Origin: Stegostoma tigrinum
Taxonomy: Eukaryota
NCBI RefSeq assembly: GCF_030684315.1
Contig: NC_081374.1
Span: 31,036,630 to 31,100,629, forward strand
DNA: 64,000 nt
Reading direction: 5' to 3'
Numbering within the stretch: the stretch's first letter is position 1; each line of letters starts with the position of its first letter. The notes beneath the pieces were generated by a model. The model searched no databases, had not been told where the DNA came from, and saw only the letters and a program-made list of their open reading frames with translations. Below are positions 3,443-45,343 of this stretch, one piece after another. Both the position numbers and the translations under genes were made by a program.

Positions 3443-4239
3443 ATATTGAGGTGCCAGTGTTGGACTGGGGTGGACAAGGCCAGAATTTACATGACACCAA
3501 GTTATTGTCCAACAGGTTTATTTGAAATCACAACTTTTTTTTCCACACTGCTCCTTCGTCAGGTGAAGTGAAAAAAAGCACGCAGGCAGAGAATGTGTAG
3601 GCAGAGAGATCAAAAGATCATACAAATGGTGTGAATGGAATTACTGAGCAGAAACTGACAGCCAAGCTGCGAACCCATGAAGACAACCATGATCTTTGAT
3701 TCATGCTGTGCTACATGTGATCCCACCATACTATTCTGTATTTGTAAAATCTTGCTTACCGTCCTGTTTTAACAGCATCACCTTGATAAGTTGTTATGAT
3801 CTCGCTACCTTAATTAGGTTCAACAGTTTTGAATTACTTGTTACCTTGATTAGATCCTTGCCATGCAACTCTTATACTTATCATGTAATTCCAGCCATTT
3901 GGTTTGTCTCCAGCATGACCTTATTTTTAATTTGTTGAAATTATCTCTCTGCCTCAATTAGTTGGGTTATAGGTCATCTCCTTCATTTACTTTTCAGCTG
4001 TTGATACTTTACTCATACAGCTTGACACTTTTGATCACCTGCAGAGACTTATTATTCAATACTCCACTCATGCCATTTGTATGACCTTTTGATCTCTCTG
4101 CCCAATGATTTCACTGCCTATAAATTCTGTGCCTGTAAACTATTCTTCACTTCATCTGATGAAGGGGCAGCACTTTGAAAGCTTTTGATTTCAAATAAAC
4201 CTGTTGGACTATAACCTGGTGTCACGTGACTTCTGACCT
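3443..4239. mobile_element. Penelope-like element family C, asymmetric inverted (palindromic) insertion
   Basis: Left ~200 bp is the reverse complement of the right end. TSD tattccaaatc(g/a)tg at 3429-3442 and 4240-4253. The left arm has a 33-nt extra tail. 3645-3720 reads as a decayed GIY-YIG C-terminus (EQKLTAKLRTHED). Confidence 0.75.
4156..4185 (+). ncRNA. Minimal hammerhead ribozyme motif (PLE family C)
   Basis: CTGATGA-aggggcagcacttt-GAAA-gctt. Core boxes present, with a palindromic AAGCTT in place of helix III; helix II is decayed. Confidence 0.55.
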
Positions 4240-4918
4240 TATTCCAAATCATGGCCACAAGCAATCTTTCCCATGTCATTGGTAATTGCTCTGCACAAAT
4301 GAAACAGGTAAAGAGGGGATATATTGGACACTGAAAATCTGGGAGAACATCGGTAGGTGAGGACATTGAGTGGGGACAAATGTTACCTTCAGTATAACAG
4401 AGTGCTGCAATGTAGACAGATGGGACTGAATTGACATCCACTTTCAACAGATGTATGTTGGATTGTTCATTAACTCTAAGTCTGTTGTTGATCATGTCTT
4501 TTCCCTGAAGCAAGTGCAACTTTTCTCTGTTTCTTTGTTTTTCTTGTTGACGAATAAAAGTGTATGTTTCCAACCATTTGAAGACTTTTCACACTGCCAC
4601 GGTCCTGTGTTAAATAATGAGAAATGTTAAGCTATACTGGGCTTTAAGGGAAAAAATTGCACTCCCTTGGACAGGGCTCTAAGATGGGAAGATGCTTAGG
4701 ACAAGTAATCTATGTTGCTTGGTGATAATGTGATGATGTGAAGGAACAATGTATTGACAAATGTGTTTGCGGTGAAGTCTCAACCATGCTACCTACTGGG
4801 TCTGCAGAAGTGTTTCCTTTTCATTCTCTTACCAATAAATGGCCAGTGACACCCACACACTGTGAGTGAATTTTGAAAAAACACAAGCAATGTGAAGGGC
4901 AACTCCTGGCTGGCTATG

Positions 4919-6026
4919 ATAATAAAATGTGAGGCTGGATGAACACAGCAGGCCAAGCAGCATCTCAGGAGCACAAAAGCTGACGTTTCGGGCCTAGACC
5001 CTTCATCAGAGAGGGGGATGGGGGGAGAGAACTGGAATAAATAGGGAGAGAGGGGGAGGCGGACCGAAGATGGAGAGTAAAGAAGATAGGTGGAGAGGGT
5101 GTAGGTGGGGAGGTAGGGAGGGGATAGGTCAGTCCAGGGAAGACGGACAGGTCAAGGAGGTGGGATGAGGTTAGTAGGTAGCTGGGGGTGCGGCTTGGGG
5201 TGGGAGGAAGGGATGGGTGAGAGGAAGAACCGGTTAGGGAGGCAGAGACAGGTTGGACTGGTTTTGGGATGCAGTGGGTGGGGGGGAAGAGCTGGGCTGG
5301 TTGTGTGGTGCAGTGGGGGGAGGGGATGAACTGGGCTGGTTTAGGGATGCAGTGGGGGAAGGGGAGATTTTGAAACTGGTGAAGTCCACATTGATACCAT
5401 ATGGCTGCAGGGTTCCCAGGCGGAATATGAGTTGCTGTTCCTGCAACCTTCGGGTGGCATCAAGGTTGCAGGAACAGCAACTCATATTCCGCCTGGGAAC
5501 CCTGCAGCCATATGGTATCAATGTGGACTTCACCAGTTTCAAAATCTCCCCTTCCCCCACTGCATCCCTAAACCAGCCCAGTTCATCCCCTCCCCCCACT
5601 GCACCACACAACCAGCCCAGCTCTTCCCCCCCACCCACTGCATCCCAAAACCAGTCCAACCTGTCTCTGCCTCCCTAACCGGTTCTTCCTCTCACCCATC
5701 CCTTCCTCCCACCCCAAGCCGCACCCCCAGCTACCTACTAACCTCATCCCACCTCCTTGACCTGTCCGTCTTCCCTGGACTGACCTATCCCCTCCCTACC
5801 TCCCCACCTACACCCTCTCCACCTATCTTCTTTACTCTCCATCTTCGGTCCGCCTCCCCCTCTCTCCCTATTTATTCCAGTTCCCTCCCCCCATCCCCCT
5901 CTCTGATGAAGGGTCTAGGCCCGAAACGTCAGCTTTTGTGCTCCTGAGATGCTGCTTGGCCTGCTGTGTTCATCCAGCCTCACATTTTATTATCTTGGAA
6001 TCTCCAGCATCTGCAGTTCCCATTAT
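4919..6026. mobile_element. Neptune-type PLE family A, near-perfect palindromic insertion (~530 bp arms)
   Basis: Arms are reverse complements around the spacer cgggtggcatc (~5451-5461), which gives mirror ORFs 5234-5659 and 5253-5678. TSD ctcctggctggctatg at 4903-4918 and 6027-6042. 35-nt tail on the right arm only. Confidence 0.93.
5903..5930 (+). ncRNA. Minimal hammerhead ribozyme motif (family A); mirror copy on - strand at 4982-5009
   Basis: CTGATGA-A-GGGT(CTAG)GCCC-GAAAC-GTC: intact core, helix II and GUC cleavage triplet. Confidence 0.75.
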
Positions 6027-6104
6027 CTCCTGGCTGGCTATGTTTGAGCTGATGCCCAGTTGAGCTTTAAAAATTGTGCTGGCTTGATTGATCAAACTAC
6101 CAGT

Positions 6105-6592
6105 TTTGAGGTTGTGGACTTGTTTGCCGAGCCAGTGTGTTTCAGTGCAGATGTTTCATAACCCTGCTGGGTAACATCATCAGTGCGCGTCCAGTGAAGC
6201 GTTGGTGTTCTGTCCTGCTTGTTATTTATCTACTTCGGTTTTCTGGGGTGGTTGGCATCACTTCTGGTTTTGTCTTTCAGTGGTTTGCATATCGGATACA
6301 GTTCTGTCTGTCTGTTGATGGAGTTCCAGATGGAATGCCAGGCCTCTAGGAATTCCCTGGCATGTTTCAGCTTGGCTTATGCTATTTCTGGCTGTGTTGT
6401 CCCAACCGAATTCGTGTCCCTCTATGTCCATGGGTCTTGAGACTAGCGAGAATTTGTCATGTCTCTTGGTAGCTAGTTGATGTTTGTGTATCTTTATTGT
6501 GGGTTTTCTTCCATTTTTGCCCATGTAATGTTTCTCACAGTCCTTGCATGGTATTTTGTATATTATGTTGGTTTTATTGGGAGTGGGCATGG
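6105..6592 (-). mobile_element. Poseidon-type PLE (family D) 3' fragment with decayed GIY-YIG endonuclease
   Basis: ORF 6258-6590 reads NIIYKIPCKDCEKHYMG..GRK..IKIH.H. Hammerhead motif CTGATGA-tgttacccagcagggttat-GAAAC-ATC on the - strand at 6150-6183. Confidence 0.8.
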
Positions 6593-8479
6593 GATCATTT
6601 ACGTTTCAATTTACACCCTTTCTGGCTGTCTGCAGTGTCTTAATAATGGTTGAGAGATCTTCTATTTCCCAAGTTACCAACGAAAACACTGCAAAGGAAC
6701 ATTGATATAAGAAATGAGCACAGAAGTAGATGCTTATGACAATTGTGACTTATTCCTATTATCACTTGCAGAGATGGAACTGAATTACACATTTCTTTTC
6801 TGGATTTAGTATTGATGCTCAGGTAGAATTCTTTGGAACAGGGCATCATACAATTTGTCTAATTATTTAGGTTATTTTCTGCACCCTTCAGTTTAAAATG
6901 TTTTGCTCTGAAAAGGGTGACCTGATAAGAGGACAACAGGGTATCTGGGTTCTTGGTGAATTATTGTATCAAAAGCATATTCCCTAAACCCGTGAGATTC
7001 ACAGATTGGGATGCAGAAAATACTGAGAAAGAGACTGAAATAAATGGGCGAAGTGTGGTCAAATCAGATACTGTGAAAGAAACTGACAGAATAAAAGATT
7101 GGATTAAGAGAAAGTGAAAAAGGAACAAAGGAAAAGTTTTGTCATCTTAAGAAGGATACTTATGATAAATAATTATAAAGTGTAAGATTCTGTCGTAAAA
7201 TTTTCTGGAATTAACATGCAAATGCAGCAACTTTATGAAACATAGCGAAATTGAGTGTGTTGCTATATTATAAAGCTAAAAGTCAGCCAATAATTTGTAG
7301 CCAAATTGAATTGATGGGGTATCTTTTTCACCTCACAAATTTTTATATTCTAAACAGAATGCATCATTATTTTTGCCCCTATATTTCCAGTAAATGCTGG
7401 CTCATTATAATGCAGTGAGGCTAAAAGCATAAAGCTAGACTGAATGAAGTAGCAAGGATGATGGAACAAGAACTGTTGAATTGTCGATGTATTTGGAGAC
7501 GTGAGTGATCATCTCTTGGATGGATTTGTCTAATCCAGGGTCCATCAGCCAGGGGCACTAATAGTCAATATTGTTCAGCTCTCTTTTCTTTTTATACTTC
7601 ATCCTATCATTCTTCTTCCAGCTGTTATTTTAAGACCAGCAGATATTAGTAACAGCTGGTCAGTCATGATAGCAACGTCATATAAAATGCAGAAAGCAAC
7701 AACAAATCTGGAAACATGGCTTGGCCAGCACCACAAAATTTGTCCTCAGTGGTTCAGGAAATGGATGTATTATTTGAATATTAACTGTCTTCTCAATGAC
7801 GCTTTCATTGCTGTGCCCAGGTTCTGAACAGGAGTCATGAACTATGCCACCCATGTATCCAATCCGTGACTCGATTGCCCAGTTGGAATAAAAGTGGCAT
7901 GAGGATGAAGGAATTGTGATTTGAGACTTGCGTTATGGCTGAAAAGCCTCTTCATTAGGCAAGGGCACCTTAGGTAAATGAGTGGTGGAGTCCATGAGCC
8001 AAGAAGTTCAGGTATAAGAAGTGCTGTCCTAAGAATAGATGTAAGTCCAAACTCACCACAGCCTAACTACCCAGCACTGCAGTTAATCTGTTTTGAAAGC
8101 AGCAAAAAGCAGTTTAGAACTGTAAAAATTAATCATATATCAGTGTTGAATAGATTAATAATTGGCCATAGGTTAGCCTATACCCTAAAAGGAAGATCAG
8201 CAACTTACCTGTATGTAAGAGGTATTTAATTGAGGTGTCCGTGCTACTGATTACCACAAATTCTGAATGTGTTTGTCCCTGAGAGTTCACCCAATTTCAT
8301 GCATGATGTCATAAACAGCAGACGAGGCTTTCTGAAATACCACAGTAAGCATCTTGAATCATTCCTAAGGACATCTGAAAAGATACTAAATCCAAAAAGC
8401 CTGTCAAAACCATCATATTGGAAGCTTAGGTATTCCTTTTTTTATCCATTAAAATGACCAAGGTAACACAAATTTCAAG

Positions 8480-9277
8480 CCCAACATTCATATGAACATG
8501 AAGTATAACATTATGTACTTTGGTGTGAAGTAGCGAGGCATAGATTAGTTTCTAGATGGGGAAATGCTTCAGAAATCTGAAGCACAAACAGTCTTAAGAG
8601 TCCTAGTTTAGGATTCTTTTCAGGTCAACATGCAAGTTCAGTTGGCAGTTAGGAGGGCAAATACAATGTTAGCATTCATTTCAAGAGGGCAAGAATACGT
8701 ATGCAAAGATATACTGCTGAGGCTGTATAAGGGCCTGGTCAGGCTGCTCTTGGAATATTGTGAGCAATTTTCGGCCTAAGGTAAGATGTGCTGTACTGGA
8801 GAGGTCTGGAGGAGGTTTACAAGGATGATCCTGGGATGCAGGGCTTGTCATATGATGAGCCGTTGCGGACTCTGGGTCTATTCTGGGAGTTTCGAAGGAT
8901 GAGGGTGAACTTGATTGAAACTTACCGAGCACTGAGAGACCTGGATAGTGTGGCTTTGAAGAAAGTATTTCCACGAGTAGCAGATACTAGCACCCATGGG
9001 TACAGCCTCTTAGTGAAGGGGTAACCCTTTTGAACTGAAATGAGAAGGAATTTCTTTAGCCAGAGAGTGGTTAATTTATGGAACTTATTGACACAGAGGC
9101 CATGTCACTGTGTGTATTTAAGAAAAAGATAGACAGGTTCTTGATTAGTAAGGGGATTAAGGGTCATGGGGAGAAGGCAGGAGAATGGAGTTGATAAATA
9201 TACCAGCCACGATTGAATGGCAGAGCAAACTTGATGGGCCAAATGGTCTAATTCTGCAGCTATATCTTATGGTCTAA
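8480..9277 (+). mobile_element. CR1 LINE 3' fragment, degenerate
   Basis: Matches the CR1 ORF2 C-terminus (LLRLYKGLVR, RRMRVNLIETYR). Ends in a CR1-type 3' tail (ggtctaattctgcagctatatcttatggtct). Confidence 0.85.
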
Positions 9278-9781
9278 CTGTCGACACACACATACACACA
9301 AATGTCTGGCTTTTGATCTTGAATCAATCCACCAAATAGTGTTGACAATGGCTCAGGGAAATTGACTTTCAGATTGCGTTGTTTCAAAATTTCCAGAAAA
9401 CAGCCTGAAAACAGGATGTCTCTTTCTACCAAAACTCCATTTTTTCCAAACTCGTTTCTGTGACTTAATGCAGCTTAGCCACAAACTCGGACTGAGGCCA
9501 TAGTTCCATGTCTCACCAGCAGGAATTTTAAATGAGCATCTTCTGGAATTGAAACATTCATCTCCCTCTTGTGATCAAATATAGAGGCAGAAAATAGATA
9601 CATACCAATGACATTATTGACTTAGGCTTACAGATTTCCTTTCTGTTCAATTGAAATCTGAATTGATGTTTCAATTTTATTAGTTGTCCTTAAAACAAAG
9701 ACACACGTGTAATTTTTTAATAATTATTACCACTGGGAACTGGTTTATTTTCAGATATCAAATCAGCAGGCATGTTATGTA

Positions 9782-10958
9782 TATAGTGTGAATCTTGATG
9801 AACACAGCAAGCCAAGTAGCATCTTAGGAGCACAAAAACTGACGTTTTGGGCCTAGACCCGTCATCAGAGAGGGGGATGGGAAGAGTGTTCTGAAATAAA
9901 TAGGGAGAGAGGGGCAGGCAGACCGAAGATGGGTAGAGGAGAAGTTAGGTGGAGAGGATACCGGTGGGGAGGTAGGGAGGGGATAGGTCAGTCCAGGGAG
10001 GACAGACAGGTCAAGAAGGTGGAATGGGTTTAGTAGGTGGGAAGTGGAGGTGCAGTTTGAGGTGGGAGGAGGGGATAGCTGAGAGGAAGAACAGGTTAGG
10101 GAGGTGAGGATGAGCTGGGCTGGTTTTGGGATGCAGTGGGGAAAGGGGGAGATTTTGAAGCTGGTGAAGTCCACATTGATACCATTGGGGTGCAGGGTTC
10201 CCAAGCAGAATATGAGTTGCTGTTCCTGCAACCTTAGGGTGGCATCATTGTGGCACTGCAGGAGGCCCATGATGGACATGTCGTCTAAGGAATGGGAGGG
10301 GGAAGTTAAAATGGTTCGCAACTGGGAGATGCAGTTGTTTGTTACGAACCGAGCAGAGGTGTTCTGCAAAGTGGTCCCCAAGCCTCCCTCCACCTTGGTT
10401 CATAATAAACAACTGCACCTCCCAGTCGCAAACCATTTTAACTCCCCCTCCTTAGACGACATGTCCATCATGGGCCTCCTGCAGTGCCACAATAATGCCA
10501 CCCAAAGGTTGAAGGAACAGCAATTCATATTCCGCTTGGGAACCCTGCAGCCCAATGGTATCAGTATGGACTTCACCAGCTTCAAAAGCTACATCCCCAA
10601 ACCAGCCCAGCTCGTCCCCAATTCCCTAACCTGTTCTTCCTCTCACCTATCCTGTCCTCCCACCTACTAACCTCATCCCACCTCCTTGACCTGTCCATCC
10701 TCCCTGGACTGACCTATTCCCCCCCCCCTACCTCCACACCTATACTCTCCTGTCCACCTATCTTCTCCTCTATCCATCTGCAGCCTGCCTCCCCCTCTCT
10801 CCCTATTTACTTCAGAACCCTCTCCCCATCCCCCTCTCTGATGAAGGCCCAAAACATCAGCTTTTGTGCTCCAAAGATGCTGCTTAGCCTGCTGTGTTCA
10901 TCCAGCTTCACACTTTGTTATCTTGGATTCTCCAGCATCTGCAGTTCCCCTTTTCTCT
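9782..10958. mobile_element. Older family A-related PLE palindromic insertion
   Basis: Diverged inverted arms meet near 10360-10395, with GIY-YIG C-terminal peptides on both strands. Tail on the right arm. Decayed hammerhead motifs near 9841-9868 (-) and 10838-10858 (+). TSD not resolved. Confidence 0.85.
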
Positions 10959-11199
10959 TATATATTATAGTCATGTCTGGTGGAATCATCTGACATGCCT
11001 TGGGTTGATTCACGAACACCAATCCTTCTTATTGGCATTAGTTTAACTAATTGATTTCAGGTGGAGAAGATACAGAGTTCCCTTACATATTCTTTGACAG
11101 AAATGAAGTTTAGTCTTGTTAAACAAAATAGGTTTATCACATAATAGTTACATTATATCTGAATTACATAAGAGTACTTTGTAGGGCCTTAAGCGATCC

Positions 11200-11522
11200 T
11201 GGGAAGGCAATGGCCCAGTGGTATTATCACTAGACTATTAATATGGAGATCCAGGTAATGTTCTAGAGACCTGCATTCGAATCACATCATTGCAAATGGT
11301 GAAATTTGAATTCAATAATGACCTAGAATTAAGGGTCTAATGATGACAATGAAGCAGTGTTGATTGTTAAGAAAAATTGATATGGTTCACTCGGAAAGGA
11401 AATCTACCATCTGTGTGACTCCAGATCCACAGCAATTTGGTTGACTCTTAGCTGCTCTCTGACCAATTAAGGATTGGCAATAAATGCTGACCTCAAAAGC
11501 AATGCCCACATCCTGTGAATTA
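11200..11522 (+). mobile_element. tRNA-headed SINE, DeuSINE/SacSINE1-like
   Basis: tRNA-like head (ggcccagtggta...ttcgaatc) and a central domain. The 3' tail ggcaataaatgctg...gcccacatcctgtgaat is shared with the LINE end at 63280-63330. Confidence 0.55.
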
Positions 11523-12299
11523 TTGTTTTTTAAAACACTTAAATAAGTCTGAATTGCTGTTACCAACTTGGCACTGAGCAGGAATAGAACCACCTTACTG
11601 GTTAGCTCTTCCCAGAAGTAGTCCTTTCATATCCTGATGGGTGGAACTCATCACATGATAGTTTAGTTAACCCTTTCAGGTAATAGCTGCCTTATAAAAC
11701 AAAGATCACATGGCTACGTTTGTTCCCAGGCACATGGTGTATACCAATATTCTTGATGACTTTAGAGAGAAGTAAGCACTGCAGGAGATAGAGTGCTTTA
11801 TTACCCCTTCCAACTTCATTTTCATTTAACTCCTTTCCCTCTCCCTCACCTTTGATGGTTTGCATTGCGCTTAACAGGCATTGCACACAAATTATTCAAT
11901 TGGAAACATGGATGATTTACTGGTGTTAGTGAACAGATGGATAAAAATATGACAGTGGAGTAAATACTAGAATCTATTATTAAGGATGTAATTACTGGGT
12001 AATTAGAAAATAATTGTGTGATTAGTCAACGTGGATTTATGAAAAGTGAGTTATATTTGACAATGGTAGACATTTTTGTGGGTGTGACTAACAAAATTGA
12101 TAAGAAGGAACCAGTGTATGTGCTGCATTTGGATTTTGAGTTTGCTCTTGATGAAGTCCTATATAGGAGGCTGGGACCAAAACTAAAACACAGGGAATGG
12201 GCCAAATATACTAGCATGGATGCAGGATTGGTTAATGGGAAAAATGCGGAGATTAGGAATAAATGTGTCATTTTCAGGTCAGCAGGCTGTACCAGTTGC

Positions 12300-12525
12300 A
12301 ATTGTTGACTTGCTTGCTGAGCTGGTAAGTTTGTTTGCAAACATTTTGTTGCCACACTAGATAATATCATCAGTGCACCTCCAGTGAAGCGTCGGTGTTC
12401 TGCCCCGCTTGCTATTTATGTGTCTCTGTTTGCTGGGTTGGTTGGCATCACTTCCAGATTTGTTGCTAAGTTGTTGGTAATTTGCGTCCGGCTCTACATG
12501 TTTGTTAATGGAGTTCCGGTTTGAG
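12300..12525 (-). mobile_element. Family D (Poseidon-type) PLE 3' end
   Basis: Visibly homologous to 6110-6330 (atcatcagtgc.cctccagtgaagcg..ggtgttctg). Confidence 0.75.
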
Positions 12526-12529
12526 GTTT

Positions 12530-12652
12530 GAAGTGAAGTTCACCTCACCTGACAAAGGAGCAGTGCTCAGAAAGCTTGTGATTTCAAATATAACCTGGTG
12601 TTATGTGACTTCTAACTTTGTCCACCCCAGTCCAATATTGCCACCTCAATAT
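12530..12652 (+). mobile_element. Family C PLE 3' end including tail
   Basis: ctgacaaaggagcagtgctcagaaagcttgtgatttcaaat...gtccaccccagtccaa matches 4150-4240 and the reverse complement of 3443-3560. Confidence 0.75.
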
Positions 12653-13651
12653 TTGTGTTGAAAGGGACCTGGGTGTCTGTTTGTTAGTATCTGAGATCTA
12701 AAAAGTAAGTGCAGCAAGCAATTTGTAAAGTAAGTGGGATGTTGACCTTTATTGCCAGAGGAATTGAGTACAGGAATGAAGAAGTCCATCTTCAATTGTA
12801 TGGAATACTCGTGAAACCACACCTGTAGTATTGTAAGCTTTTCTGCTTCCCTTACCATGGAGGAAGTGCAGCAGCAGCTCACCAGGCTGATTCCTGGGGT
12901 TGTGGGACTGTACTAAGAGGTGAGATTGGGAAAATTGCACCTGTATCCTCTGAAGTTTAAAAGAATGAATGGCTATTTCATAGAAATTCTCAAAATTCTT
13001 AGACAAATAGACAGTTTAGATGCAGAAAGGTCAATTTCCCCACCTCTGACACCCAGCAACACAGATTCAATAAAAAGAACAAGCCATTTAATACTAAGCT
13101 GAGGAGTTTTTTTATCACTCAGAGGGTGGTGAATCTTTGAAATTCTCAATCTCAAATGACAATGGGTGCTTAGATATTAAGTAAGTTCAAGACAAAGAAT
13201 GATAGATTTCGAGATACTAACAACTCCAATGGATCCAGGGATAATGTGGGCACATGGCGTTGATGTAGATGATGAGCCCTGAGCTGGATTGGTTCGAGGG
13301 GTTGAATGGCCCATTCCTGCTCTTATGTTCCTTTGTCCCATGTTCTGTGCAGCCAGTCATTCCATCCTTTTATCAGCTTACAAAATTGAAAAGCCAGGAA
13401 GTTATGCAAAATCATATCAACCTTTGCTAGATCGAGAGAACATTGGGCAACTTTTGTTTTCTATATTATTAAAAATGAGAGAAAGGTTGTTAAGTCGGGG
13501 GAAGGGAAGTTTGAAGGATGATGTATAAAATAATTGCTTTGAAAGGGTTAATGTTGGAGATTGTTACACTCCACCCAATTTGATGATGTCAGAATCTTTG
13601 GCTAAAGAAGCAGTCTAGCATGAGCTCCCAATGGATACCGATGTGTCTTTG

Positions 13652-13865
13652 ATAACAAAGTGTGGAGCTGGATGAACACAGCAGGCCAAGCAGCATCTCA
13701 GGAGCACAAAAGCTGATGTTTCGGGCCTAGACCCTGCATCAGAGAGGGTCTAGGCCCGAAATATCAGCTTTTGTGCTCCTGAGATGCTGCTTGGCCTGCT
13801 GTATTCATCCAGCTCCACACTCTGTTACTGTGGATTCTCCAGCATCTGCAGTTCCCATTGTCACA
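13652..13865. mobile_element. Miniature palindromic family A PLE insertion (non-coding)
   Basis: Inverted arms of ~85 bp centred on the hammerhead region; tail on the right. TSD gatgtgtctttg at 13640-13651 and 13866-13877. Confidence 0.88.
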
Positions 13866-14264
13866 GATGTGTCTTTGTTGGGTCCTGATAGTCTCTGTAA
13901 TTATGCCAAACTCATCAAGGTAACATGTACATTGTCACCATACATAAACAACATCTTGTGATTAAGAGAAGTGCCTCAACTTAACACGATGCATTCGTGG
14001 TTTATCATCTACCATTGGTAATGGATAGGTCCTTAAACTCAGTGTAGAGTGTTGGTACAGCAGTAAAATAGAAGCCTTCAGAGACCAGTGACATTGGAGG
14101 GGCTCGGGGTGCTTCTTTACCCTGCACAATGTTATTGTGATTTAGTAAGTTTCTGTTTCCTTTTGTAAGTTTCTATTAACTATTAGTTTTGTATTTTTGT
14201 TATAATGCTTCATCAGTGGGTTCTTTAATCTAATCTCGTTTGGTATAAGAAGTAGAGTGTTGAG

Positions 14265-15548: not shown

Positions 15549-15706
15549 TAATCCTGCGGGACCTTCGTATCTCCGATTTGAATCATCGCACCGCTGGTGG
15601 CCAGGCCTAGGCTCCAAACATTGGAACGTTTCCCCTTAAACCTCACTCACCTCCTTCATTACAATCTCTCTACTCTGCTTTGATCAACCAGGTTTGGTTC
15701 ACAGAG

Positions 15707-15867
15707 ATAATGGGAACTGCAGATGCTGGAGAATCCAAGATAACAAAGTGCGAAGCTGGATGAACATAGCAGGCCAAGCAGCATTTCAGGAGCACTTTTG
15801 TGAGATAGGAGCACTCCTGAGATGCTGCTTGGCCTGCTGTGTTCATCCAGCTTCACACTTTGTTATC
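15707..15867. mobile_element. Miniature palindromic family A PLE insertion in UBE2T intron 1
   Basis: Inverted arms, tail on the left, hammerhead core absent. TSD ttggt(t/g)cacagag at 15694-15706 and 15868-15880. Confidence 0.85.
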
Positions 15868-15977
15868 TTGGTGCACAGAGCCTGAGTGAGAGACCTTTAC
15901 AGTGATGTCTGCTGATGTGGTTTGTGGCTGTAACCCTCCCATTTGTGCTTTTGTTTGTGCTGCAGGTCAACTGCCAG

Positions 15978-16395: not shown

Positions 16396-16606
16396 GACAG
16401 TAGGATCTGCAGATGCTGGAGAATCTGAGATAACAAGGCATAGAGCTGGATGAACACAGCAGGCCAAGCAGCATCAGAGGAGCAGGAATGCTGATGTTTC
16501 AGGCCTAGACCCTCTGATGAAGGGTCTAGGCCAAATACGTCAGCTTTCCTGCTCCTGAGATGCTGCTTGGCCTGCTGTGTTCATCCAGCTCTACACCTTG
16601 TTACGG
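16396..16606. mobile_element. Miniature palindromic family A-related PLE insertion in UBE2T intron 2
   Basis: Arms fold around ctgatga, tail on the left. TSD gctga(t/c)tgttcaga at 16382-16395 and 16607-16620. Confidence 0.85.
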
Positions 16607-16905
16607 GCTGACTGTTCAGATGGCTGTTACACCATACGTGACAGCACTACTGGGGGTGTTGCAGGTATTCGACCCACCTGAGGCCTCTGATCAAGATGGG
16701 ATCCAAATTCCAGTAATTGATGGTGGCCAGGATATTTGGCTGATGGAGATGATTTTTAGTGTACCCCTTCTCTATCTGGGACCCCGGGGAGCTTCTGAGC
16801 GAACAGCTTGTTGTATTTTCTCACATGACAGATACCCAGCTTTGGATTGAATTTGGAACTTCTACTTCAGTTGCACTTGTTATTTCCATGTAGACCTGTA
16901 TTCCA

Positions 16906-20937: not shown

Positions 20938-21163
20938 AAAGCAAAGTTGCTGGAAAAGCTCAGCAGGTCTGGCAGCATCTGTGGAGGAGAAAACAGAGTT
21001 AACGTTTCGGGTCCAGTGACCCTTCCTCAGAACTCACCGCACCTGAAACATTAACTCTTTAACTAAATGTTTTCTCCTCCACAGATGCTACCAGACCTGC
21101 TGAGCTTTTCCAGCAACTTTGCTTTTGTTCCTGATTTACAGCATCCACAGTTCTTTTGGTATT
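20938..21163. mobile_element. Miniature palindromic PLE insertion, family B
   Basis: Inverted arms aaagcaaagttgctggaaaagctcagc... and ...gctgagcttttccagcaactttgcttt, with a ~37-nt tail on the right. TSD tactccctaa(t/g)atct at 20923-20937 and 21164-21178. Confidence 0.85.
20996..21035 (-). ncRNA. Minimal type I hammerhead ribozyme motif (family B)
   Basis: GAGTT-CTGAGGA-A-GGGTC(ACTG)GACCC-GAAAC-GTT-AACTC: perfect 5-bp helix I and 5-bp helix II. Confidence 0.78.
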
Positions 21164-27076: not shown

Positions 27077-28282
27077 GTATGTTTAAACTTTCTCAACTTG
27101 TGGGGCTATGGGTGAAATGTGTAAATTTGTATTCATGGGTCATGCCAAAACTGCTTTGTAAGTAACTGCAAAATGCACAAGGGCATAATTCCAAAATGGC
27201 TGCTTTTTTTTTCCTTTTGCGTCCACGACTGGTGGATGGCAACTTAGTTTGCAGGGAATTCAATTATACAGCTATGGTTTAAAGGTTTATACCTGTGAAC
27301 TTATGAAATAAAAACCATAAAACACCAATGAAAAGCTCACCATCTTGGTTAATAAAAATTGTTTCAAAACAGTAAAAATTATTGATCCAACATTTTTTCC
27401 TATACTCAAAAATTAAAAACATATACTACTTAGTAGTTCAGAGATAATGGGAACTGCAGATGCTGGAGATTCCAAGATAATAAAATGTGAGGCTGGATGA
27501 ACACAGCAGGCCAAGCAGCATCTCAGGAGCACAAAAGCTGACGTTTCGGGCCTAGACCCTTCATCAGAGAGGGGGATGGGGGGAGGGAACTGGAATAAAT
27601 AGGGAGAGAGGGGGAGGCGGACCGAAGATGGAGAGCAAAGAAGATAGGTGGAGAGGGTGTAGGTGGGGAGGTAGGGAGGGGATAGGTCAGTCCAGGGAAG
27701 ACGGACAGGTCAAGGAGGTGGGATGAGGTTAGTAGGTAGCTGGGGGTGCGGCTGGGGGTGGGAGGAAGGGATGGGTGAGAGGAAGAACCGGTTAGGGAGG
27801 CAGAGACAGGTTGGACTGGTTTTGGGATGCAGTGGGTGGGGGGGAAGAGCTGGGCTGGTTGTGTGGTGCAGTGGGGGGAGGGGATGAACTGGGCTGGTTT
27901 AGGGATGCAGTGGGGGAAGGGGAGATTTTGAAACTGGTGAAGTCCACATTGATACCATATGGCTGCAGGGTTCCCAGGCGGAATATGAGTTGCTGTTCCT
28001 GCAACCTTCGGGTGGCATCATTGTGGCAGTGCAGGAGGCCCATGATGGACATGTCATCAAGAGAATGGGAGGGGGAGTGGAAATGGTTTGCGACTGGGAG
28101 GTGCAGTTGTTTGTTGCGAACTGAGCGGAGGTGTTCTGCAAAGCGGTCCCCAAGCCTCCGCTTGGTTTCCCCAATGTAGAGAAAGCCGCACCGGGTACAG
28201 TGGATGCAGTATACCACATTGGCAGATGTGCAGGTGAACCTCTGCTTAATGTGGAAAGAGGTTCACCTGCACATCTGCCAAT

Positions 28283-28708
28283 GTGGTATACTGCATCCAC
28301 TGTACCCGGTGCGGCTTTCTCTACATTGGGGAAACCAAGCGGAGGCTTGGGGACCGCTTTGCAGAACACCTCCGCTCAGTTCGCAACAAACAACTGCACC
28401 TCCCAGTCGCAAACCATTTCCACTCCCCCTCCCATTCTCTTGATGACATGTCCATCATGGGCCTCCTGCACTGCCACAATGATGCCACCCGAAGGTTGCA
28501 GGAACAGCAACTCATATTCCGCCTGGGAACCCTGCAGCCATATGGTATCAATGTGGACTTCACCAGTTTCAAAATCTCCCCTTCCCCCACTGCATCCCTA
28601 AACCAGCCCAGTTCATCCCCTCCCCCCACTGCACCACACAACCAGCCCAGCTCTTCCCCCCCACCCACTGCATCCCAAAACCAGTCCAACCTGTCTCTGC
28701 CTCCCTAA
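28283..28708 (+). CDS. Uninterrupted PLE GIY-YIG endonuclease domain (5'-truncated, no RT); mirror copy at 27792-28217 (-)
   Basis: VYCIHCTRCGFLYIGETKRRLGDRFAEH...H...EQQLI...GIN. No ATG start; expression not shown. Confidence 0.6.
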   Translation: MVYCIHCTRCGFLYIGETKRRLGDRFAEHLRSVRNKQLHLPVANHFHSPSHSLDDMSIMGLLHCHNDATRRLQEQQLIFRLGTLQPYGINVDFTSFKISPSPTASLNQPSSSPPPTAPHNQPSSSPPPTASQNQSNLSLPP

Positions 28709-28932
28709 CCGGTTCTTCCTCTCACCCATCCCTTCCTCCCACCCCCAGCCGCACCCCCAGCTACCTACTAACCTCATCCCACCTCCTTGACCTGTCCGTC
28801 TTCCCTGGACTGACCTATCCCCTCCCTACCTCCCCACCTACACCCTCTCCACCTATCTTCTTTGCTCTCCATCTTCGGTCCGCCTCCCCCTCTCTCCCTA
28901 TTTATTCCAGTTCCCTCCCCCCATCCCCCTCT

Positions 28933-28960
28933 CTGATGAAGGGTCTAGGCCCGAAACGTC
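28933..28960 (+). ncRNA. Minimal hammerhead motif (family A), sense to the UBE2T pre-mRNA; mirror copy at 27540-27567 (-)
   Basis: CTGATGAAGGGTCTAGGCCCGAAACGTC. Confidence 0.75.
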
Positions 28961-30124
28961 AGCTTTTGTGCTCCTGAGATGCTGCTTGGCCTGCTGTGTT
29001 CATCCAGCCTCACATTTTATTATCTACTTAGTAGTTCAATCAGTTTAATAGAAAATCTGGTTCTGGTCCAGCTAGGGCAAGAAAGGTGCAAGGTTGCTGC
29101 CTTGTTTGTATCCGAGTTAACCAGTGTCAGTTAGAGATAGGTTACATGTTACATGGCTGATATCAGTTTTGGTTCAGTTTGGTGAAAGGAATGAGCCAGA
29201 CTTCCCGTTCCTAACTTCTATTTGTTAATTTTTGCAGCGGTGTGTTGATATCAAGATGTTGGACAAGACTGTGGCATACTCTGGCTTAGCTTTAACACCT
29301 TCTGTTTGAATAGTTTAGCAATTCACTATCAACTTTAAATCATAAATGGTTATGTGGAGAGAAAATTAATAACAATAAATGCTGATTCATGGAGAACTAT
29401 CGTCATCATCAGAATGCAAGAGAAAGGAGTAAAATAAGTATTTTTTTGTAACAAAGGTCTTGCGTCTCTCCTTTTCAAACCCGGAAAGCTTTAAGCTTAT
29501 GTTGTTGTCCTTTAGTTAAAACACCTTCTGCTTATGTAATAAATTTTGTGACCGCATGCTGTCAATCTAACAATGGCATTGTGTGTGATGTTTTCCAAGA
29601 CCTATGCAGTCAGATAATTCTTTCAGTCAACATGTATCTCCAAGCCACATGCGAACTATTTCTCTTCAGTTTAAGTAACTACCTCTCACCAATTCCACAA
29701 ACAACAACTATTTCCGATTAAAGGCACAGCAGATACTTGCTAATAAATAGTAGTATAAATCTCAATTAGAAAAAGAGGGTTAATAAAGTTTGCTATCAAT
29801 AATGCATTAATGAGCTAGCAAGTTCAATGGATTAAAGGAAATTCCATAGTTCTGAATTGTTGGTTGCTGCTGTCATTTTGCTTTTGTAAACAACATCTCC
29901 CCATTTGTCTGTTTTTTTAAGAACTTTAACTACCGATGGAAACTGCTGCATTAAATTGTGTATAGCAACTGTTAATGCTATCTGAACATCCTGCTTGGCC
30001 AAAGAAGGGTACAATTTGAACTTGCACTTATACTTTGAGTAAAGTTGGCACAATGAAGGTTCAATTGAATTAGTTCCTAAGGTCATGGGGATTCTTCTAT
30101 GATGAGAGGCTATACAAATGCTCA

Positions 30125-36477: not shown

Positions 36478-38625
36478 CAACACCCTGGCAACATCCCTGT
36501 AAATCTTTTGTGAACCCTTTCAAGTTTCACAACATCCTTTCTTTAGCAGAGAAACCAAAAGTACATGCAGTATTCCAAAAGTGGCCTAACCAATGTCCTG
36601 TACAGCTGCAGCCTGACCTCCCAATTCCTGTATTCAATGCACCGATCAATAAAGGCAAGCATACCAAACGCCTTCTTTACTATCCTATCTACCTGCGACT
36701 CCACTTTTAAAGAACTATGAACCTGCACCCCAAGGTCTCTTTGTTCAGTAATACTCCCCAGGATCTTACCATTAAGTGTATAAGTCCTGTCCTGGTTTGT
36801 CTTTCCGAAATGCAGCACTTCACATTTATCTAAATTAAAGCCCATCTGCCACTCCTTCGCCCATTGGCTCATCTGATCAAGATCCTGTTGTACTCTGGGG
36901 TAACGTTCTTTGCTGTCCACTAAACCTGCTATTTTGGTATCATCTGCAAACTTACGAACTATATCTCCTATATTCACATCCAAATCATTTATATACATGA
37001 TAAAGAACAGTGAACCCAGCACCGATCCTTACAGCACACCACTAAGCATTGGCCTCCAGTCCAAGAAGCGATCCTCTGCCACCAGCCTCTGTCGTCAACC
37101 TTTGTGCTAATTTTGTATCCAAATAGCTAGTTCTTTCTGTATTCCATGTGATCTAACCCTGCTAATCAGTCTACCATGACGAACCTTGTTGATTGCCTTA
37201 CTTAAGTACATATAGAGCACGTCCATCCCTTTGCCTTCATCAATCCTCTTCGTTACGTCTTCAGAAATCTCAATCAAGACACAATTTCCCATGCACAAAG
37301 CCACATTGACTATCTCTAATCAGTCCTTGCCTTTCAAAATACATGTAAATCCTTGCCCCCAGGATTCCCTCCAACAACTTGCCCACTGCCAATGTCAGGC
37401 TCAGAAGTCTACTCTCCCTGGCTTTTCATTACCACGTTCTTAAATAGTAGCACCACATTGGTCAATTTCCAGTCTTCCAGCTCTGCACCTGTGACTGTTG
37501 ATGGTACGGATGGCGCTGTAATCACTTCCCTAGCTTCCCACAGAGTTCTTAGGTACACCTGATCAGGTCCAGGGTTTTATCCACCGTTATAAGTTTTAAG
37601 ATGCCTAGCACCTTCTTCTCTGTAGTATGGGCATTTTTCAAGTTATCATTATTTATTTCCCACATTCTATATCTTGCTTACCCTTGTCCACCACAAACAC
37701 TGACGTAAGATACTTGTTTAGTATCTCCTCCATCTCCTGCAGTTCCACACATAGGCAACCTTGCTAATCTTTAAGGGGACGTATTCTCTTTCTAGTCACC
37801 CTTTTGTCCTTAATGTATTTGTAGAATCACCTTGAAGTCTCCCTAATCCTATTTACCAAAACTATCTCACGTTCCATTTTTACCCTCCTGATTTCCCTCT
37901 TAAGCATACTGCTGCACTTATATTCTTCTAGGGATTCACTTGATCCCTGCTGTCTATACCTGACATATGCTTCCTTCTTTTTCTTGACAAACACCTCAAC
38001 TTCTGTAGTCACCCAGCATTTCCTACGCTTACCAACCTTGCCCTTCACCCTAACAGGAACGTACTGTCTCTGGACTCTTGTTGTCTCATTTTTGAAGGCT
38101 TCCCATTTTCCAGGCATTCCTTTACCAACAAACATCTTCCCCCAATCAACTTTTGAAAGTTCTTGCCGAATACTGTCAAAATTGGCCTTCCTCCAATTTA
38201 GAACTTTAAATTTAGATCCGGTCTATCCTTTTCCATCACTGTTTTAAAACTAAGAGAATTATGGTCACTGGCTCCAAAGTGCTCCCCCACTGACACCTCA
38301 GTCACCTGCCCTGCCTTATTTCCTAAGAGTAGGTCAATTTTTGCACCTTCTCTGGTAGGTACATCCACATACCGAATCAGAAAATGTTCTTGTGCATACT
38401 TAACAAATTCCTTTCCATCCAAGTCCTTAAAACTATGGCAGTCCCAGCCTATGTTTGGAAAATTAAAATCCCCTACAATAACCACCTTATTATCCTTACA
38501 GATAACTGGAATCTCCTTACAAATTTCTCAATTTCCTGCTGACTATTGGGGGGTCTATAGTACAAGCCCAATAAGGTGATCAACTCTTTCTTCAAACCCT
38601 ATTTCTCAGTTTCACTGAAATAACT
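36478..38625 (-). mobile_element. CR1 LINE ORF2 fragment (APE endonuclease end plus RT)
   Basis: VGDFNFPNI, DLLLGN, SDHN (endonuclease); YINDLD, KFADDTK, LYRTLVRPLLEYC (RT). Confidence 0.92.
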
Positions 38626-39337
38626 TATATCACTTAACAGAACATAGATAGTTTGAAAAAATAAATGCTATAAAAAAGGATCTGCATTTATTTATATTTA
38701 TTCCTTCGTTCAGCAATGTGATTCCCTTTGCCAATTCTATGTTTGTATTGAATAAGACTTCATTTAAATTGTTGCCTGGTAAATACTAGAGAAGGGGACA
38801 AGTATGTCAACTGCCCACAGGGTAGAGCAGAGTCTCTCGTAAGGTGAAGTCATTTATGAATTTATTCTTAGATATCCAGAAAGGAAGTCGCATTTGTGAG
38901 GTGTATGATACACAATACATTTGCGACAATTCCGTTATAGCTATTAAGTTGCCTTTGCTATTTCTTGCAGTCAGTTAATGAATGGCTCAGGTTTAATTGA
39001 AGAGAATAATCTGAGTAATGCAGGTTAGTATGTATCCACAAATTAGTCAGCAATTGGTGATGTGTAAGAGATAACTGTCTGAATCGTGATGCTAACAGCT
39101 ACATCTCACCCTAATTTCACAATTTTCATGAAGTTTCTAAATTTGTATATTAATTGACCATTGGACTGTATGAATATCATTAGCAGTTTGCGCGAGATTG
39201 GAACAGATGAGGACTGGATACAATTTAAATACTAATGTGGCATGCTAAAATTTTAGAACAGTAAATAATTTCAAAACAGTGCAAAGCTAATTTAAATAAA
39301 CATGCAATTATTTTTTAAACGACCATTAAAAATGTAG

Positions 39338-40900
39338 ACAAAAACTAAGTTGCTGGAAAAGCTCAGCAGGTCTGGCAGCATCCGTGAGGAAAAAAGGTCA
39401 GAGTTAATGTTTCGGATTCGGTGACCTTTCCTCAGAGCTCTTGGTGGCTGAGAAAATGTCAGTTTATAAGCAGAAAATAGGGAGAGGGGTGGGGTAGGGA
39501 GTAAATGATAGGATAGAACCTAAAGAGAAAGAAGTACAGTTGGACAGACAAAGGAGTTGATAACAATCAGGCTGGGAGGGTGAATTGTTATAAATGGGAC
39601 TATTAGTGACTAACAACAGGTGGTGTGTAATGGCAGGCTATGTGGTAACTAGGCCTGGTGTGTGGGGTATTGGGGTGGGACATGGGAGAGTTTAGGCTGT
39701 AAAATTACTGAACTCAATATTGAGTCCAGAGGGCTACAGGGCCCTCAAGCGGAAAATGAGGTGTTGTTCTTCCAGCTCGTGTTGAGCTTCGCTGGAACAC
39801 TGTAGCAAGCCAGAGACAGAGATGTTGGCCAGGGAACAGGGTGGTGTGTTAAAGTGGCAGGAAACAGGTAGCTTAGGGTGTTTTTCTTGTAAGCAGAATG
39901 TAGATATTCTGCGAAGTGATCACACAATCTACGCTTCGTTTCCCCAATGTAGAGGAGACCGCATTGTGAGCAGCGAATGCAGTAGACCAGATTCTGGGAA
40001 GTGCAGATGAAGTTTGGGCTCTTGGATACTGAGGAGACAAGAGGTGAATGGGCAGGTTTCAGGGGAAGGTGCCGGAAGGCTATGGGGAGGTGTTGCGGGT
40101 GAAGGAAGTGTGGACCAGGGTGTCCCGGAGGGAACAGCCCCTGCAGAAGGCCGTCAAGGGAGGGGAGGGGAATATGTGTCTGGTGTAGCATCTTGCTGGA
40201 GGTGGCGGAAATGGCGTCTGATGATCTTCTGGATGTGATGCTGGTGGGATGGTAGGTTTGGACAAGGCAAACCCTATCACTGTTGCAGGAGGGAAGAGAG
40301 GGGTTGAGGGTGGATGTGCAGGAGATGGGTCGGACCCAATTGAGGACGCTGTTGACAAAGGTGCTGGGGAATCCTTGGTTGAGGAAGAAGGTGGACATTT
40401 CGGAGGCACCCTTATCAAAGTTGGCCTCATCTGAACATATACAATAGAGGCGGAGGAACTGAGAAAATGGGATGGAGTCTTTAGCAGGGTGTAAGAATGT
40501 ATAGTTCAGGTTGCTGTGGGAATTGGTGGTTTGTAATGGATATTAGTGCCCAGTCTAGCCACAGAAATGGAAACAGAAATGTTGAGGGAGGGAAGGGAGG
40601 AGTCAGAGATAGACCAGGTGAAAGTGAGGGCAGGTGAGAAATTGGAGGCGAAATTGATGAAGTTTTCCAATTCCACATGAGAGAGGGAAGCAACACCAGT
40701 GATATCATCAATGTATTGGAGAAAGAGTTGTGGGTGGGGGCCGGAATAGAACTGGAACAAGGAATGTTCCAAGTACCCCATGAAGGGACAGGCATTACTC
40801 AGGCCTATGCGTGTACCCATGGCCACCCCTCATACCTGAAGAAAATGAGAGGCGTTCAAAGAGAAGTTGTTGAGGGTGAGGACGAGCTCGGCCAAGTGGA
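39338..40900 (-). mobile_element. Neptune-type PLE family B, 5'-truncated and frameshifted (RT plus GIY-YIG)
   Basis: AMGTR..., LQYIDD and LVYCIRCSQCGLLYIGETKRRL peptides. The 3' end matches the 20938 mini-element, with a decayed hammerhead near 39407-39435. Confidence 0.88.
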
Positions 40901-40914
40901 AGAGAGTGGTCGTG

Positions 40915-42590: not shown

Positions 42591-43269
42591 TTTAAAATTT
42601 TCTGTAGGTTTGTAAATCATGGTGCATCTACTGAAATTGCTTGCTGATTTTCAATCACATACTTCCATAAACTACTACAACAAGGCCAAGCCATCCACCT
42701 CGATCCTCTCTGCCCTTTGTAATTGCAAGTCTCTGACAAGAAGACCCTCAGCATGTCTGGCCTGTCCAGACACAAAAGCCTCTGTTGTCACGGGACCAAA
42801 TGTTCATGACCAACAAGTTCTATTCCCAAGCAGGCCCACTCCAAACCTGCTGTGGAACCAAAGGGTACATTAAGACTTACTACAAGGGAGAGGAAGGTGA
42901 ACATTTTTTGAGGAGCTTTTGTTGATGTGGATGACAACGTAGTGTTTGTTATTTGGTATGGTTCAGTTAGGTACAACTATGTGAGCTGGATACACCTACC
43001 TTTCCTCTCTTCCCTCCCCCCCCCCCCCCCCCCCCCCCCATAAAATCAGATTCAGAAATCAGGCCTGGAGAGAAGTAAAACCAAAATTAAGTGATAACTT
43101 GCCTCTAAACACAACTTTCTGATGAATTCCACTGAGGCCATTGTGAAGTGGTTGCCACCAGAGGGGAAAACAAGGTCAGTGTTACTAAATCCCAATTCCA
43201 TAGCATGTTCCTGGCTCTTACCTGGTAACCAGCACTGTGGGCCTAGTCTATACTTTTCTTGTTTTGCTT

Positions 43270-43388
43270 GTTGATAGAAAAGGCTCGAAATATCACTTTT
43301 CCTGCTCCCCTGATGCTACCTGGCCTGCTGTGCTCCTCCAGCTCACGCTGTTATCTCTGACTCCAGCATCAGCAGTTCTTACTATCTT
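43270..43388 (+). mobile_element. Old family A-related PLE 3' terminus remnant
   Basis: cgaaatatcacttttcctgctcccctgatgct...ctccagcatcagcagttcttactatct. Confidence 0.6.
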
Positions 43389-44403
43389 ATTGGCAAGATC
43401 TGCTGCTTTACGTTTTTAATAGTCATTTTTTAAAAAACATGCTTATTTAAATTAGCTGTGTATTGTTTTGAAATTAATCACTTTTGTGCCAAACATTATC
43501 TTTCTAAAATTTCTTCACCCGAGTGCAAGAACATTTAGAATGTGCTCTTCCCATGCAAAAATGTTGGACACGACTGTATTACATAAACTTGCTAATTATA
43601 TCTTGTAATTAGCAATGTGGTATGTTGCCTTTATGTTTAATTGCTTTGGTGGACTTGAGTTTGAGAAGTTGTGGATATGTAGGTACCTAAATTGGTTTCT
43701 TTTAAAAGAGTCCATTGAAAGGATAATGGAACTTCTTTTCTTTAATTCGGCAAATCTTAGAGCCCCTATATTTCCAGGAGATTATCAGGCATCGTTGCTC
43801 GAACTCAGTTCAGGAAATAAAAATCTGGCATTTTGCAACTGGGCTTATGACTTTTCTGCTTGAAGAATGTTTTGCAGGCTTGGAATTTCAGTTGTGGGTG
43901 CCTGATCTAAAAAGGAGCTGCTCAGCTGATGTCTCCTGTTTCTGAAGCATACTTGAGGTGAATCCAGTCTGAAACATGATTGTCCTCCTGAAAATTGACT
44001 GGAACACTTCATAATACTATGTTTCCTGAGTAAGGTATGTCTGCAAATATCCCAGAGACAGCTGATTATGTTTTGTGAGCCTGTCTACTGCTGCCAGAAT
44101 ATTCACATGACATCTTTATTCTTCTTACATTCAAGAACGAAGACTGTTTTGAAAAAGTGTGTATTTTCCAAATTGATTGCCTGCAGAGTAAAATATCATT
44201 TTCCCATTGCCAATTTATGTTTGTCTATACCTTGAGTTATTTAGAGAGGTAATCTATATTTTTATGTCGTAAACTAAGTGTTACCCAGTTTTAAAGCGGA
44301 TGAGCTTATTAATGAAACTAGTTGAGTGTTTTGTTTTAAGTAGAATGTAAGTGGAGCAATTGTTTGACCAAGTTTGGAACCAGGCAAAACCATTAAATAT
44401 AAG

Positions 44404-45343
44404 AGATAATGGGAACTGCAGATGCTGGAGAATTCCAAGATAATAAAATGTGAGGCTGGATGAACACAGCAGGCCAAGCAGCATCTCAGGAGCACAAAAG
44501 CTGACGTTTCGGGCCTAGACCCTTCATCAGAGAGGGGGATGGGGAGAGGGAGCTGGAATAAATAGGGAGAGAGGGGGAGGCGGACCGAAGATGGAGAGTA
44601 AAGAAGATAGGTGGAGAGAGTATAGGTGGGGAGGTAGGGAGGGGACAGGTCAGTCCAGGGAAGACGGACAGGTCAAGGAGGTGGGATGAGGTTAGTAGGT
44701 AGCTGGGGGTGCAGCTTGGTGTGGGAGGAAGCGATGGGTGAGAGGAAGAACCGGTTAGGGAGGCAGAGACAGGTTGGACTGGTTTTGGGATGCAGTGGGT
44801 TGGGGGGAAGAGCTGGGCTGGTTTTGTGGTGCAGTGGGGGGAGGGGACGAACTAGGCTGGTTTAGGGATGCAGTAGGGGAAGGGGAGATTTCGAAATCTC
44901 CCCTTCCCCTACTGCATCCCTAAACCAGCCTAGTTCGTCCCCTCCCCCCACTGCACCACACAACCTGCCCAGCTCTTCCCCCCCACCCACTGCATCCCAA
45001 AACCAGTCCAACCTGTCTCTGCCTCTCTAACCGGTTCTTCCTCTCACCCATCCCTTCCTCCCACACCAAGCTGCACCCCCAGCTACCTACTAACCTCATC
45101 CCACCTCCTTGACCTGTCCGTCTTCCCTGGACTGACCTATCCCATCCCTACCTCCCCACCTATACTCTCTCCACCTATCTTCTTTACTCTCCATCTTCGG
45201 TCCGCCTCCCCCTCTCTCCCTATTTATTCCAGCTCCCTCTCCCCATCCCCCTCTCTGATGAAGGGTCTAGGTCCGAAACGTCAGCTTTTGTGCTCCTGAG
45301 ATGCTGCTTGGCCTGCTGTGTTCATCCAGCCTCACATTTTATT
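44404..45343. mobile_element. Family A PLE palindrome with spacer-less centre
   Basis: Centre gagatttc|gaaatctc at 44892/44893. TSD accattaaatataag at 44389-44403 and 45344-45358. Tail on the left. Hammerhead motifs at 44503-44530 (-) and 45255-45282 (+). Confidence 0.93.

Follow-up and report, generated by a model that had tools for sequence, protein, structure and literature searches.

How does a retroelement come to lie in a genome as a palindrome, with both arms ending at the same 3' terminus and one arm running some 35 nt further than the other? The question is raised by a 64-kb stretch of the Stegostoma tigrinum genome (G000:C25:31036630-31100629; hereafter the window), in which a preliminary description had recognised nine such insertions and assigned them to three families, A, B and C, of Penelope-like elements (PLEs). 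We found that each insertion is one event, in which two 5'-truncated copies of an endonuclease-containing (EN+) PLE lie head to head inside a single target site duplication (TSD) of 13-16 bp. The palindrome is a major product of integration, not the dominant one.

Head-to-head insertions in the window

All nine inverted-arm insertions were found at the starts reported earlier. They are listed here without strand, in positions of the window.

3443..4239: e1, family B head-to-head insertion; tailed left arm of about 197 nt, untailed right arm of about 600 nt holding a coding remnant of the GIY-YIG C-terminus; TSD 3429-3442 / 4240-4253, 14 bp, 1 mismatch
4919..6026: e2, young family A; 533-nt arms, tail on the right, untailed arm reaching about 21 nt further 5'; TSD 4903-4918 / 6027-6042, 16 bp
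9782..10958: e3, old family A; arms alike to about 79%, right arm tailed
13652..13862: e4, short family A; right arm tailed; TSD 13637-13651 / 13863-13877, 15 bp, 1 mismatch
15707..15867: e5, short family A; left arm tailed, with about 18 nt at the centre unassigned; TSD 15694-15706 / 15868-15880, 13 bp, 1 mismatch
16396..16606: e6, short, older subfamily of A; tail on the left, arms unlike at a two-base subfamily-like site; TSD 16382-16395 / 16607-16620, 14 bp, 1 mismatch
20938..21163: e7, short family C; right arm tailed; TSD 20923-20937 / 21164-21178, 15 bp, 1 mismatch
27441..29023: e8, very young family A; identical 769-nt arms, with a 13-nt loop that is part of the tailed (left) arm; TSD 27426-27440 / 29024-29038, 15 bp
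28250-28567, plus strand: GIY-YIG coding sequence in the e8 arm (profile match PF01541)
44404..45343: e9, family A; 461-nt arms without a loop, centred on an 8-bp palindrome, tail on the left; TSD 44389-44403 / 45344-45358, 15 bp

TSDs were called by script at the insertion borders. Eight had been described as readable and eight were found, with scores of 11-16, above those of 237 control pairings of mismatched flanks, whose 99th percentile was 9 and maximum 11; at the borders of e3 the script found none. The one-sided extension was borne out in 9 of 9 insertions, and in the eight bounded by a TSD it measured 34, 33, 34, 32, 32, 38, 36 and 38 nt. The fixed tail length previously given for each family does not hold, as the values scatter by a few bases and are 34 nt in family B (not about 37) and 38 nt in family C (not 33).

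Identity of the elements

Frames for reverse transcriptase (RT) and GIY-YIG endonuclease (EN) are present in families A and C, and the e8 arm matched the GIY-YIG profile PF01541 with 23 bits against a cut-off of 22.6, which upholds the earlier assignment to PLEs. A one-armed family A copy (L135:5068-7908, minus strand) holds an uninterrupted RT-EN frame of 946 aa, whose match to RVT_1 (E 2.6e-5) is below the Pfam cut-off; a PDB search with the family A open reading frame (ORF) gave no match. The translations of family A, of family C and of a fourth family, D, contain a DKG motif and a CCHH zinc finger, with CxxC between GIY and YIG. Upstream of its GIY-YIG domain family A has a CX4CxxC linker finger, which is not resolvable in the decayed copies of B and C. 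Family C has a terminal motif in common with A and a similar GIY-YIG domain, the decayed copies of B hold a GIY-YIG C-terminus of the same general type, and D (6106-6600), being without the linker zinc finger, reads as Poseidon-type. The sections consulted of a review of the group (Craig et al., 2021; PMC8557442) define EN+ PLEs and their Neptune/Nematis type by a CX2-5CxxC linker finger and a CxxC-bearing GIY-YIG domain. Judged from their translations, our families are EN+ PLEs, and by these motif definitions family A is of Neptune/Nematis type.

Two other identities were considered and rejected. A Penelope/Poseidon clade for family A is ruled out by its linker zinc finger. A miniature inverted-repeat transposable element with terminal inverted repeats does not fit lengths of 0.16-5 kb, arms made of 5'-truncated RT-EN coding sequence, and asymmetric ends.

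Of 30 loci with the ORF start, 18 have a sense copy of the 3' end and its tail in front of it, a partial tandem that forms a pseudo-long terminal repeat (pLTR). The ORF-start motif has 478 exact matches in the genome, which indicates hundreds of near-full-length copies.

Control for assembly artefacts

The arms of the youngest insertions are 100% identical, as a fold-back in the assembly or in a read would leave them, and PLEs do enter older copies (L113, L124, L125), which speaks for two independent adjacent insertions. Against either, a single TSD encloses both arms. The contigs of four public runs were compared with positions 3000-14200 of the window, and head-to-head joints (e.g. 5010 to 5902) were present in 38, 33 and 2 contigs of three independent runs, one of them from another organism. 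The left junction of e3 was crossed by one contig with 45 element letters; two contigs enter e2 and e4 by 22-23 letters with a mismatch-free junction, too short to count as bridged. A fold-back is further contradicted by the arms of older pairs, which differ at 1-20%, and by the asymmetry of tail and loop, and adjacent insertions by orientation, head-to-head adjacency having been counted 71 times as compared to 14-28 for the other orientations. Assembly fold-back is therefore unlikely, given the contig joints, the independent divergence of old arms and the one TSD around both arms. The palindromes, for which the preliminary description had raised this possibility, are real DNA.

One tail and two end points

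Counts outside the window were taken from a genome sample of 950 kb drawn from 17 places. A degenerate anchor gave 270 matches in sample and window together and 0 in controls, and of 79 adjacent head-to-head anchor pairs 42 had a TSD score of at least 10. Exactly one tail was present in 59 of 68 adjacent head-to-head pairs and in 41 of 42 pairs bounded by a TSD (binomial p 2e-11 against independent ends). In addition, 20 close pairs and 20 single copies were fetched from one young lineage. All 22 young TSD-bounded pairs (23 rows, one removed because it is not a single insertion) likewise had exactly one tail.

The tail of family A is represented in the window by the following feature.

5995..6029, plus strand: family A tail, about 35 nt between short end and long end; full-length copies run past it into the ORF start

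Young tails end within 2 nt of one position, with two copies running on for 6 and 15 templated nt. Of the young short ends, 18 of 22 lie 32-41 nt inside the tail end and the other 4 lie 46-165 nt inside it. Two end points about 35 nt apart had been proposed; two preferred points do exist, but the run-ons and the displaced short ends show that they are not fixed. In near-full-length loci the tail continues into the ORF (18 of 30), with the first in-frame ATG 39 nt past the tail, so that the two ends of family A are placed 39 and about 74 nt upstream of this codon. Since sequence continues past the tail into the ORF, both end points are internal to the RNA: they are two preferred internal RT start sites. 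Apart from a weak enrichment in T immediately outside the cut, no target consensus was found.

Among the young pairs, TSDs of 13, 14, 15 and 16 bp occurred in 2, 11, 7 and 6 cases, respectively (26 of 32 rows resolved by script), and 12 of 15 young one-armed copies had a TSD of 10-15 bp. Median lengths were 14.5 for two-armed and 12.5 for one-armed insertions (p 2e-4). One-armed young copies ended at the tail in 11 of 15 cases and at the short end in 4. Head-to-head insertions of family D in the sample are also one-tailed, two of them with TSDs of 9-12 bp; in families B and D the TSDs, at 9-14 bp in a small number of cases, appear to be shorter than in A and C.

Correspondence between the arms

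The two arms have coupled 5' breakpoints. In young pairs with arms spanning 0.2-2.6 kb, the distance between them is at most 15 nt in 7 of 21 pairs and at most 130 nt in 14, where permutation gives means of 0.7 and 3.4 (p 1e-5). L107, L120 and L128 were left out of this test for their complex centres, and L125, a young copy beside an older copy, was excluded from the young pairs. The coupling was repeated in 34 sample pairs (p 1e-5), where arms were mapped against non-palindromic references, 5 of 39 family A/C rows being left out because they could not be resolved and 2 being placed manually from BLAST. The tail was found on either the longer or the shorter arm: the longer arm was untailed in 13 and tailed in 5 young pairs (p 0.10), and untailed in 16 and tailed in 13 of the sample. 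Centres mostly show 0-2 nt of overlap or a few extra bases. Separately, extra central strand switches or pLTR copies in a row make a few young insertions complex (L107, L108, L120, L128 and G000:C3:70037454-70039298).

Young arms differ from each other at 13 of 17,790 sites, which leaves little time for later rearrangement, and over the same number of sites share 6 private changes. One 4.2-kb palindrome has a 7-nt deletion in both arms, these being the sole 2 matches in the genome, and three substitutions near the deletion occur in no other of 40 scored matches. At subfamily-diagnostic cells the arms disagree in 4 of 90, as compared to a background of 2.9% at invariant sites; the 39 discordant cells expected for independent arms are too generous a figure, as it pools subfamilies of different ages.

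The 5' ends of 40 of 68 arms fall 66-90 nt upstream of the anchor, around the edge (76) of a hammerhead-like motif, and 6 of the 68 end near the predicted hammerhead cut (48). The pLTRs of long copies often start in the same 66-90 nt zone.

28933..28960, plus strand: family A core motif resembling a hammerhead, recognised by eye; short arms mostly end at its 5' edge

A hammerhead ribozyme in the pLTR is a feature of EN+ PLEs; no Rfam match was obtained for the present motif, and its folding z-scores (0.08, -0.23 and -0.42) indicate no folding excess. A few short arms (sample pairs on C6 and C1) begin at the predicted cut, a hint of self-cleaved RNA templates.

Frequency of the palindromes

In the sample, 59 of 188 insertions were two-armed and 129 one-armed (31% two-armed, a figure depressed by decay and very short second arms); for family A the count was 43 of 122. 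The density of two-armed insertions was 62 per Mb in the sample as compared to 9 per 64 kb in the window, which is therefore enriched, and scaling gives about 200,000 two-armed insertions in the genome. The young lineage has 1,914 exact matches, the first 100 listed comprising 31 close pairs and 38 singles. As 15 of the 20 singles fetched were truly one-armed, about half of the insertions of this lineage are two-armed. The palindrome had been called the dominant integration product, a term that these proportions do not support, one-armed insertions with a TSD being at least as common.

Genome-wide copy counts for family A were made with exact patterns, whose reversed controls gave 0. Its tail 27-mer occurs 109,302 times and its core 27-mer 231,786 times. 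The core/tail ratio of 2.1 was considered as proof of two arms with one tail and discarded, as a mix of pairs and one-armed copies also yields it.

Some young family A copies lie in or beside older PLE copies (L113, L124, L125, L137 and L138); in L125 a short arm is joined, 3' end to 3' end, with a tailed arm.

Other features of the window

The window also holds one-armed PLE copies.

57723..59759, minus strand: one-armed family A copy of 2 kb with the short end; RT and GIY-YIG frame
55024..55117, plus strand: one-armed family A stub with the short end; begins at the hammerhead-like core, with a 7-bp flanking direct repeat read by eye
39338..40908, minus strand: one-armed family C copy; RT and GIY-YIG frames broken
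6106-6600 (minus strand), 12302-12517 and 22117-22372: fourth PLE family (D), with a Poseidon-type GIY-YIG domain, one-armed in the window

An inverted 520-bp duplication (24264-24784 / 29595-30099; 5 kb apart, 82% alike) brackets e8; it is unique to these two places in the genome, is much older than e8 and has no obvious TSD or PLE end. An inverted 80-bp AT-rich duplication (39257-39336 / 43409-43485; 79%), of which no further copy was found in the sample, lies immediately beyond a family C end and an old A-like end. Fragments of RT of the long interspersed element (LINE) type occur at 574-1356 (minus strand), 36543-37028 (minus strand) and 8538-9098, with RVT_1 E values of 6e-25 and 2e-6. 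Copies of a repeat of about 310 bp, similar to a short interspersed element (SINE), lie at 49909-50220 and 62269-62597; the repeat appears to resemble the shark HE1 SINE.

Discussion

The insertions are probably the outcome of a staggered cut whose two 3' ends both prime reverse transcription on one RNA, at sites about 35 nt apart. A single RNA would most simply account for the one-tail rule, the coupled breakpoints and the shared variants. The GIY-YIG domains, probably of a dimer, would nick the two strands at points about 14-15 bp from each other. Priming by one 3' overhang at the inner site would give the short end; priming by the other at the outer site, which lies about 35 nt downstream, would give the tail. 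Both enzymes would use the same RNA as template, with the leading complementary DNA (cDNA) displaced by the trailing enzyme, and both would stop near the same place, either the 5' end of the RNA or the point of displacement. The cDNA ends may then be joined by a template jump or by end joining, with 0-2 nt of homology. The many stubs of about 200 bp may arise when priming takes place at the same sites in the upstream pLTR copy and synthesis then runs off the 5' end of the transcript. In fact, either end is used alone in one-armed insertions, and two-armed insertions use one of each.

Taken as a whole, such steps may amount to a concerted integration by two polymerases that is not known from other retroelements, an idea that we advance tentatively: a dimer cutting 14-15 bp apart, one RNA read from two sites 35 nt apart, and a trailing enzyme that displaces the leading cDNA and then joins it or switches onto it would produce palindrome, single tail and matched arms in one event, of which the genome would hold about 200,000 records.

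Several points weigh against copying from one RNA. Seven of the 21 young pairs are strongly asymmetric, their arms differing by 196-1387 nt, and the longer untailed arm that the model predicts appears as a trend that is not significant. In e6 and one C9 pair the arms differ at diagnostic sites, and 20 of the young pairs are no test of subfamily mixing, as they were chosen by both arms matching one lineage pattern. Shared private variants can also come from gene conversion between the arms or from a lost source copy, and copying errors would not produce them at the density of an older palindrome (7 in 1555 sites). Of the about 6,060 contig joints on 3000-14200, the 15 displayed included no empty-site allele. 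Finally, the green anole element PAc, studied in vitro, is Poseidon-type with start sites inside the ORF, whereas family A is Neptune-type and its ends lie upstream of the first in-frame ATG.

Twin priming in which each arm is copied from a separate RNA, the two cDNAs being joined afterwards, is an unlikely alternative, even though it accounts for the TSD, for both flush ends and for the asymmetric third of the pairs, and agrees with the subfamily-like differences in e6 and the C9 pair. Separate RNAs alone leave unexplained the coupled breakpoints at 0.4-2.6 kb, the rule of exactly one tail and the private deletion common to both arms.

A snap-back, in which one cDNA from the first nick folds and copies itself while the second nick captures its end or supplies a short tail cDNA that anneals, we likewise consider unlikely. 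It would suit the near-symmetric centres, some of which lie on short internal palindromes (e9, L112), as well as the shared private variants, and self-priming is proposed for PLE palindromes in the pertinent passages of Arkhipova et al. (2013; PMC3846280). In the pure form, however, nothing absent from the first arm can appear in the second, which puts the loop on the tailed arm; yet in 13 of 21 young pairs and in 16 of 34 from the sample the longer arm is the untailed one, and the centres have mostly 0-2 nt of homology. It survives solely as a variant with a second priming, which overlaps with the priming of both strands on one RNA.

There is little reason to think that the tail results from endonuclease resolution of a DNA intermediate instead of two RT starts, as a passage in Craig et al. 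(2021; PMC8557442) suggests. Sharp ends would fit a nuclease cut, but the ends here vary in position by several nt and can extend further along the RNA, and later in vitro work, in the part relevant here, maps two RT starts to the borders of the tail (Frangieh et al., 2024; PMC11167929). Fold-back in assembly or reads, or two independent adjacent insertions, can practically be dismissed on the evidence of the contig joints and the single TSD given above.

The architecture itself is already known, and the present families are further cases of it. The general features of PLEs named in the pertinent sections of PMC8557442 include an inverted truncated copy and a one-sided tail of 30-40 bp, and the same layout is described in PMC3846280 with TSDs of 8-10 bp, fish being named and head-to-head being the most frequent inverted form. 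In these passages the complex insertions of canonical EN+ PLEs combine 5'-truncated copies and partial pLTR tandems with a 5'-truncated copy in inverted orientation at the 5' end, with this one-sided tail and with a TSD. The TSDs of 8-10 bp, from rotifers, contrast with 13-16 bp in family A, the copy number is far higher here (at least 109,302 exact tail 27-mers), and the one-tail rule and arm coupling are counted here, whereas the same passages give no such counts. Penelope of Drosophila virilis, in the relevant part of Schostak et al. (2008; PMC2377424), has a terminal repeat of 34-37 bp and a promoter in the pLTR, its commonest form being flanked by inverted repeats of variable size; the organisation is noted there also for Tetraodon Poseidon/Xena. 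Those inverted repeats enclose a partial tandem whose ORF is complete, while the shark insertions are mostly short truncated pairs. The closest likeness to a vertebrate system described in vitro is with green anole PAc (PMC11167929): two internal RT start sites bound the tail, the RNA continues past both, both strands are nicked and extended and a dimer is predicted, all of which favours the model of two priming ends, although head-to-head products and TSD length are not modelled in the sections covered. The preliminary suggestion that the architecture was new to vertebrates does not stand, as the layout is stated for fish in the passages of PMC3846280 and PMC2377424 and the tail with its two RT starts for green anole in that of PMC11167929. 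What is added here are the one-tail counts, the 13-16 bp TSDs of young insertions, the coupled breakpoints, the presence of the tail on either arm and the shared private variants. Passages of PMC8969392 and of bioRxiv 10.64898/2026.07.22.740005 had no decisive bearing on these points. No publication on shark PLE palindromes or arm coupling was found in a search that did not extend to subscription papers (Arkhipova 2006; Evgen'ev and Arkhipova 2005), supplements or Repbase/Dfam, which may hold such detail.

The arms of these palindromes both copy the same 3' part of the RNA, from starts about 35 nt apart, and this sets them apart from the inversions of LINE-1. In LINE-1 twin priming both nicked strands prime on one RNA and an inverted junction results; the two parts of the RNA copied in such inversions do not overlap.

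The route of tandem and inverted PLE insertion is called undefined in the passages concerned of the 2021 review (PMC8557442), and the in vitro study of 2024 (PMC11167929), in the sections covered, leaves the later integration steps open. The shark genome offers a large natural record with near-intact young copies, and it allows counts of nick stagger, of start-site use and of arm coupling. PLEs are the closest relatives of telomerase, and such counts make their integration step testable, for example with one protein. The abundance of palindromes could also matter for genome stability and for double-stranded RNA.

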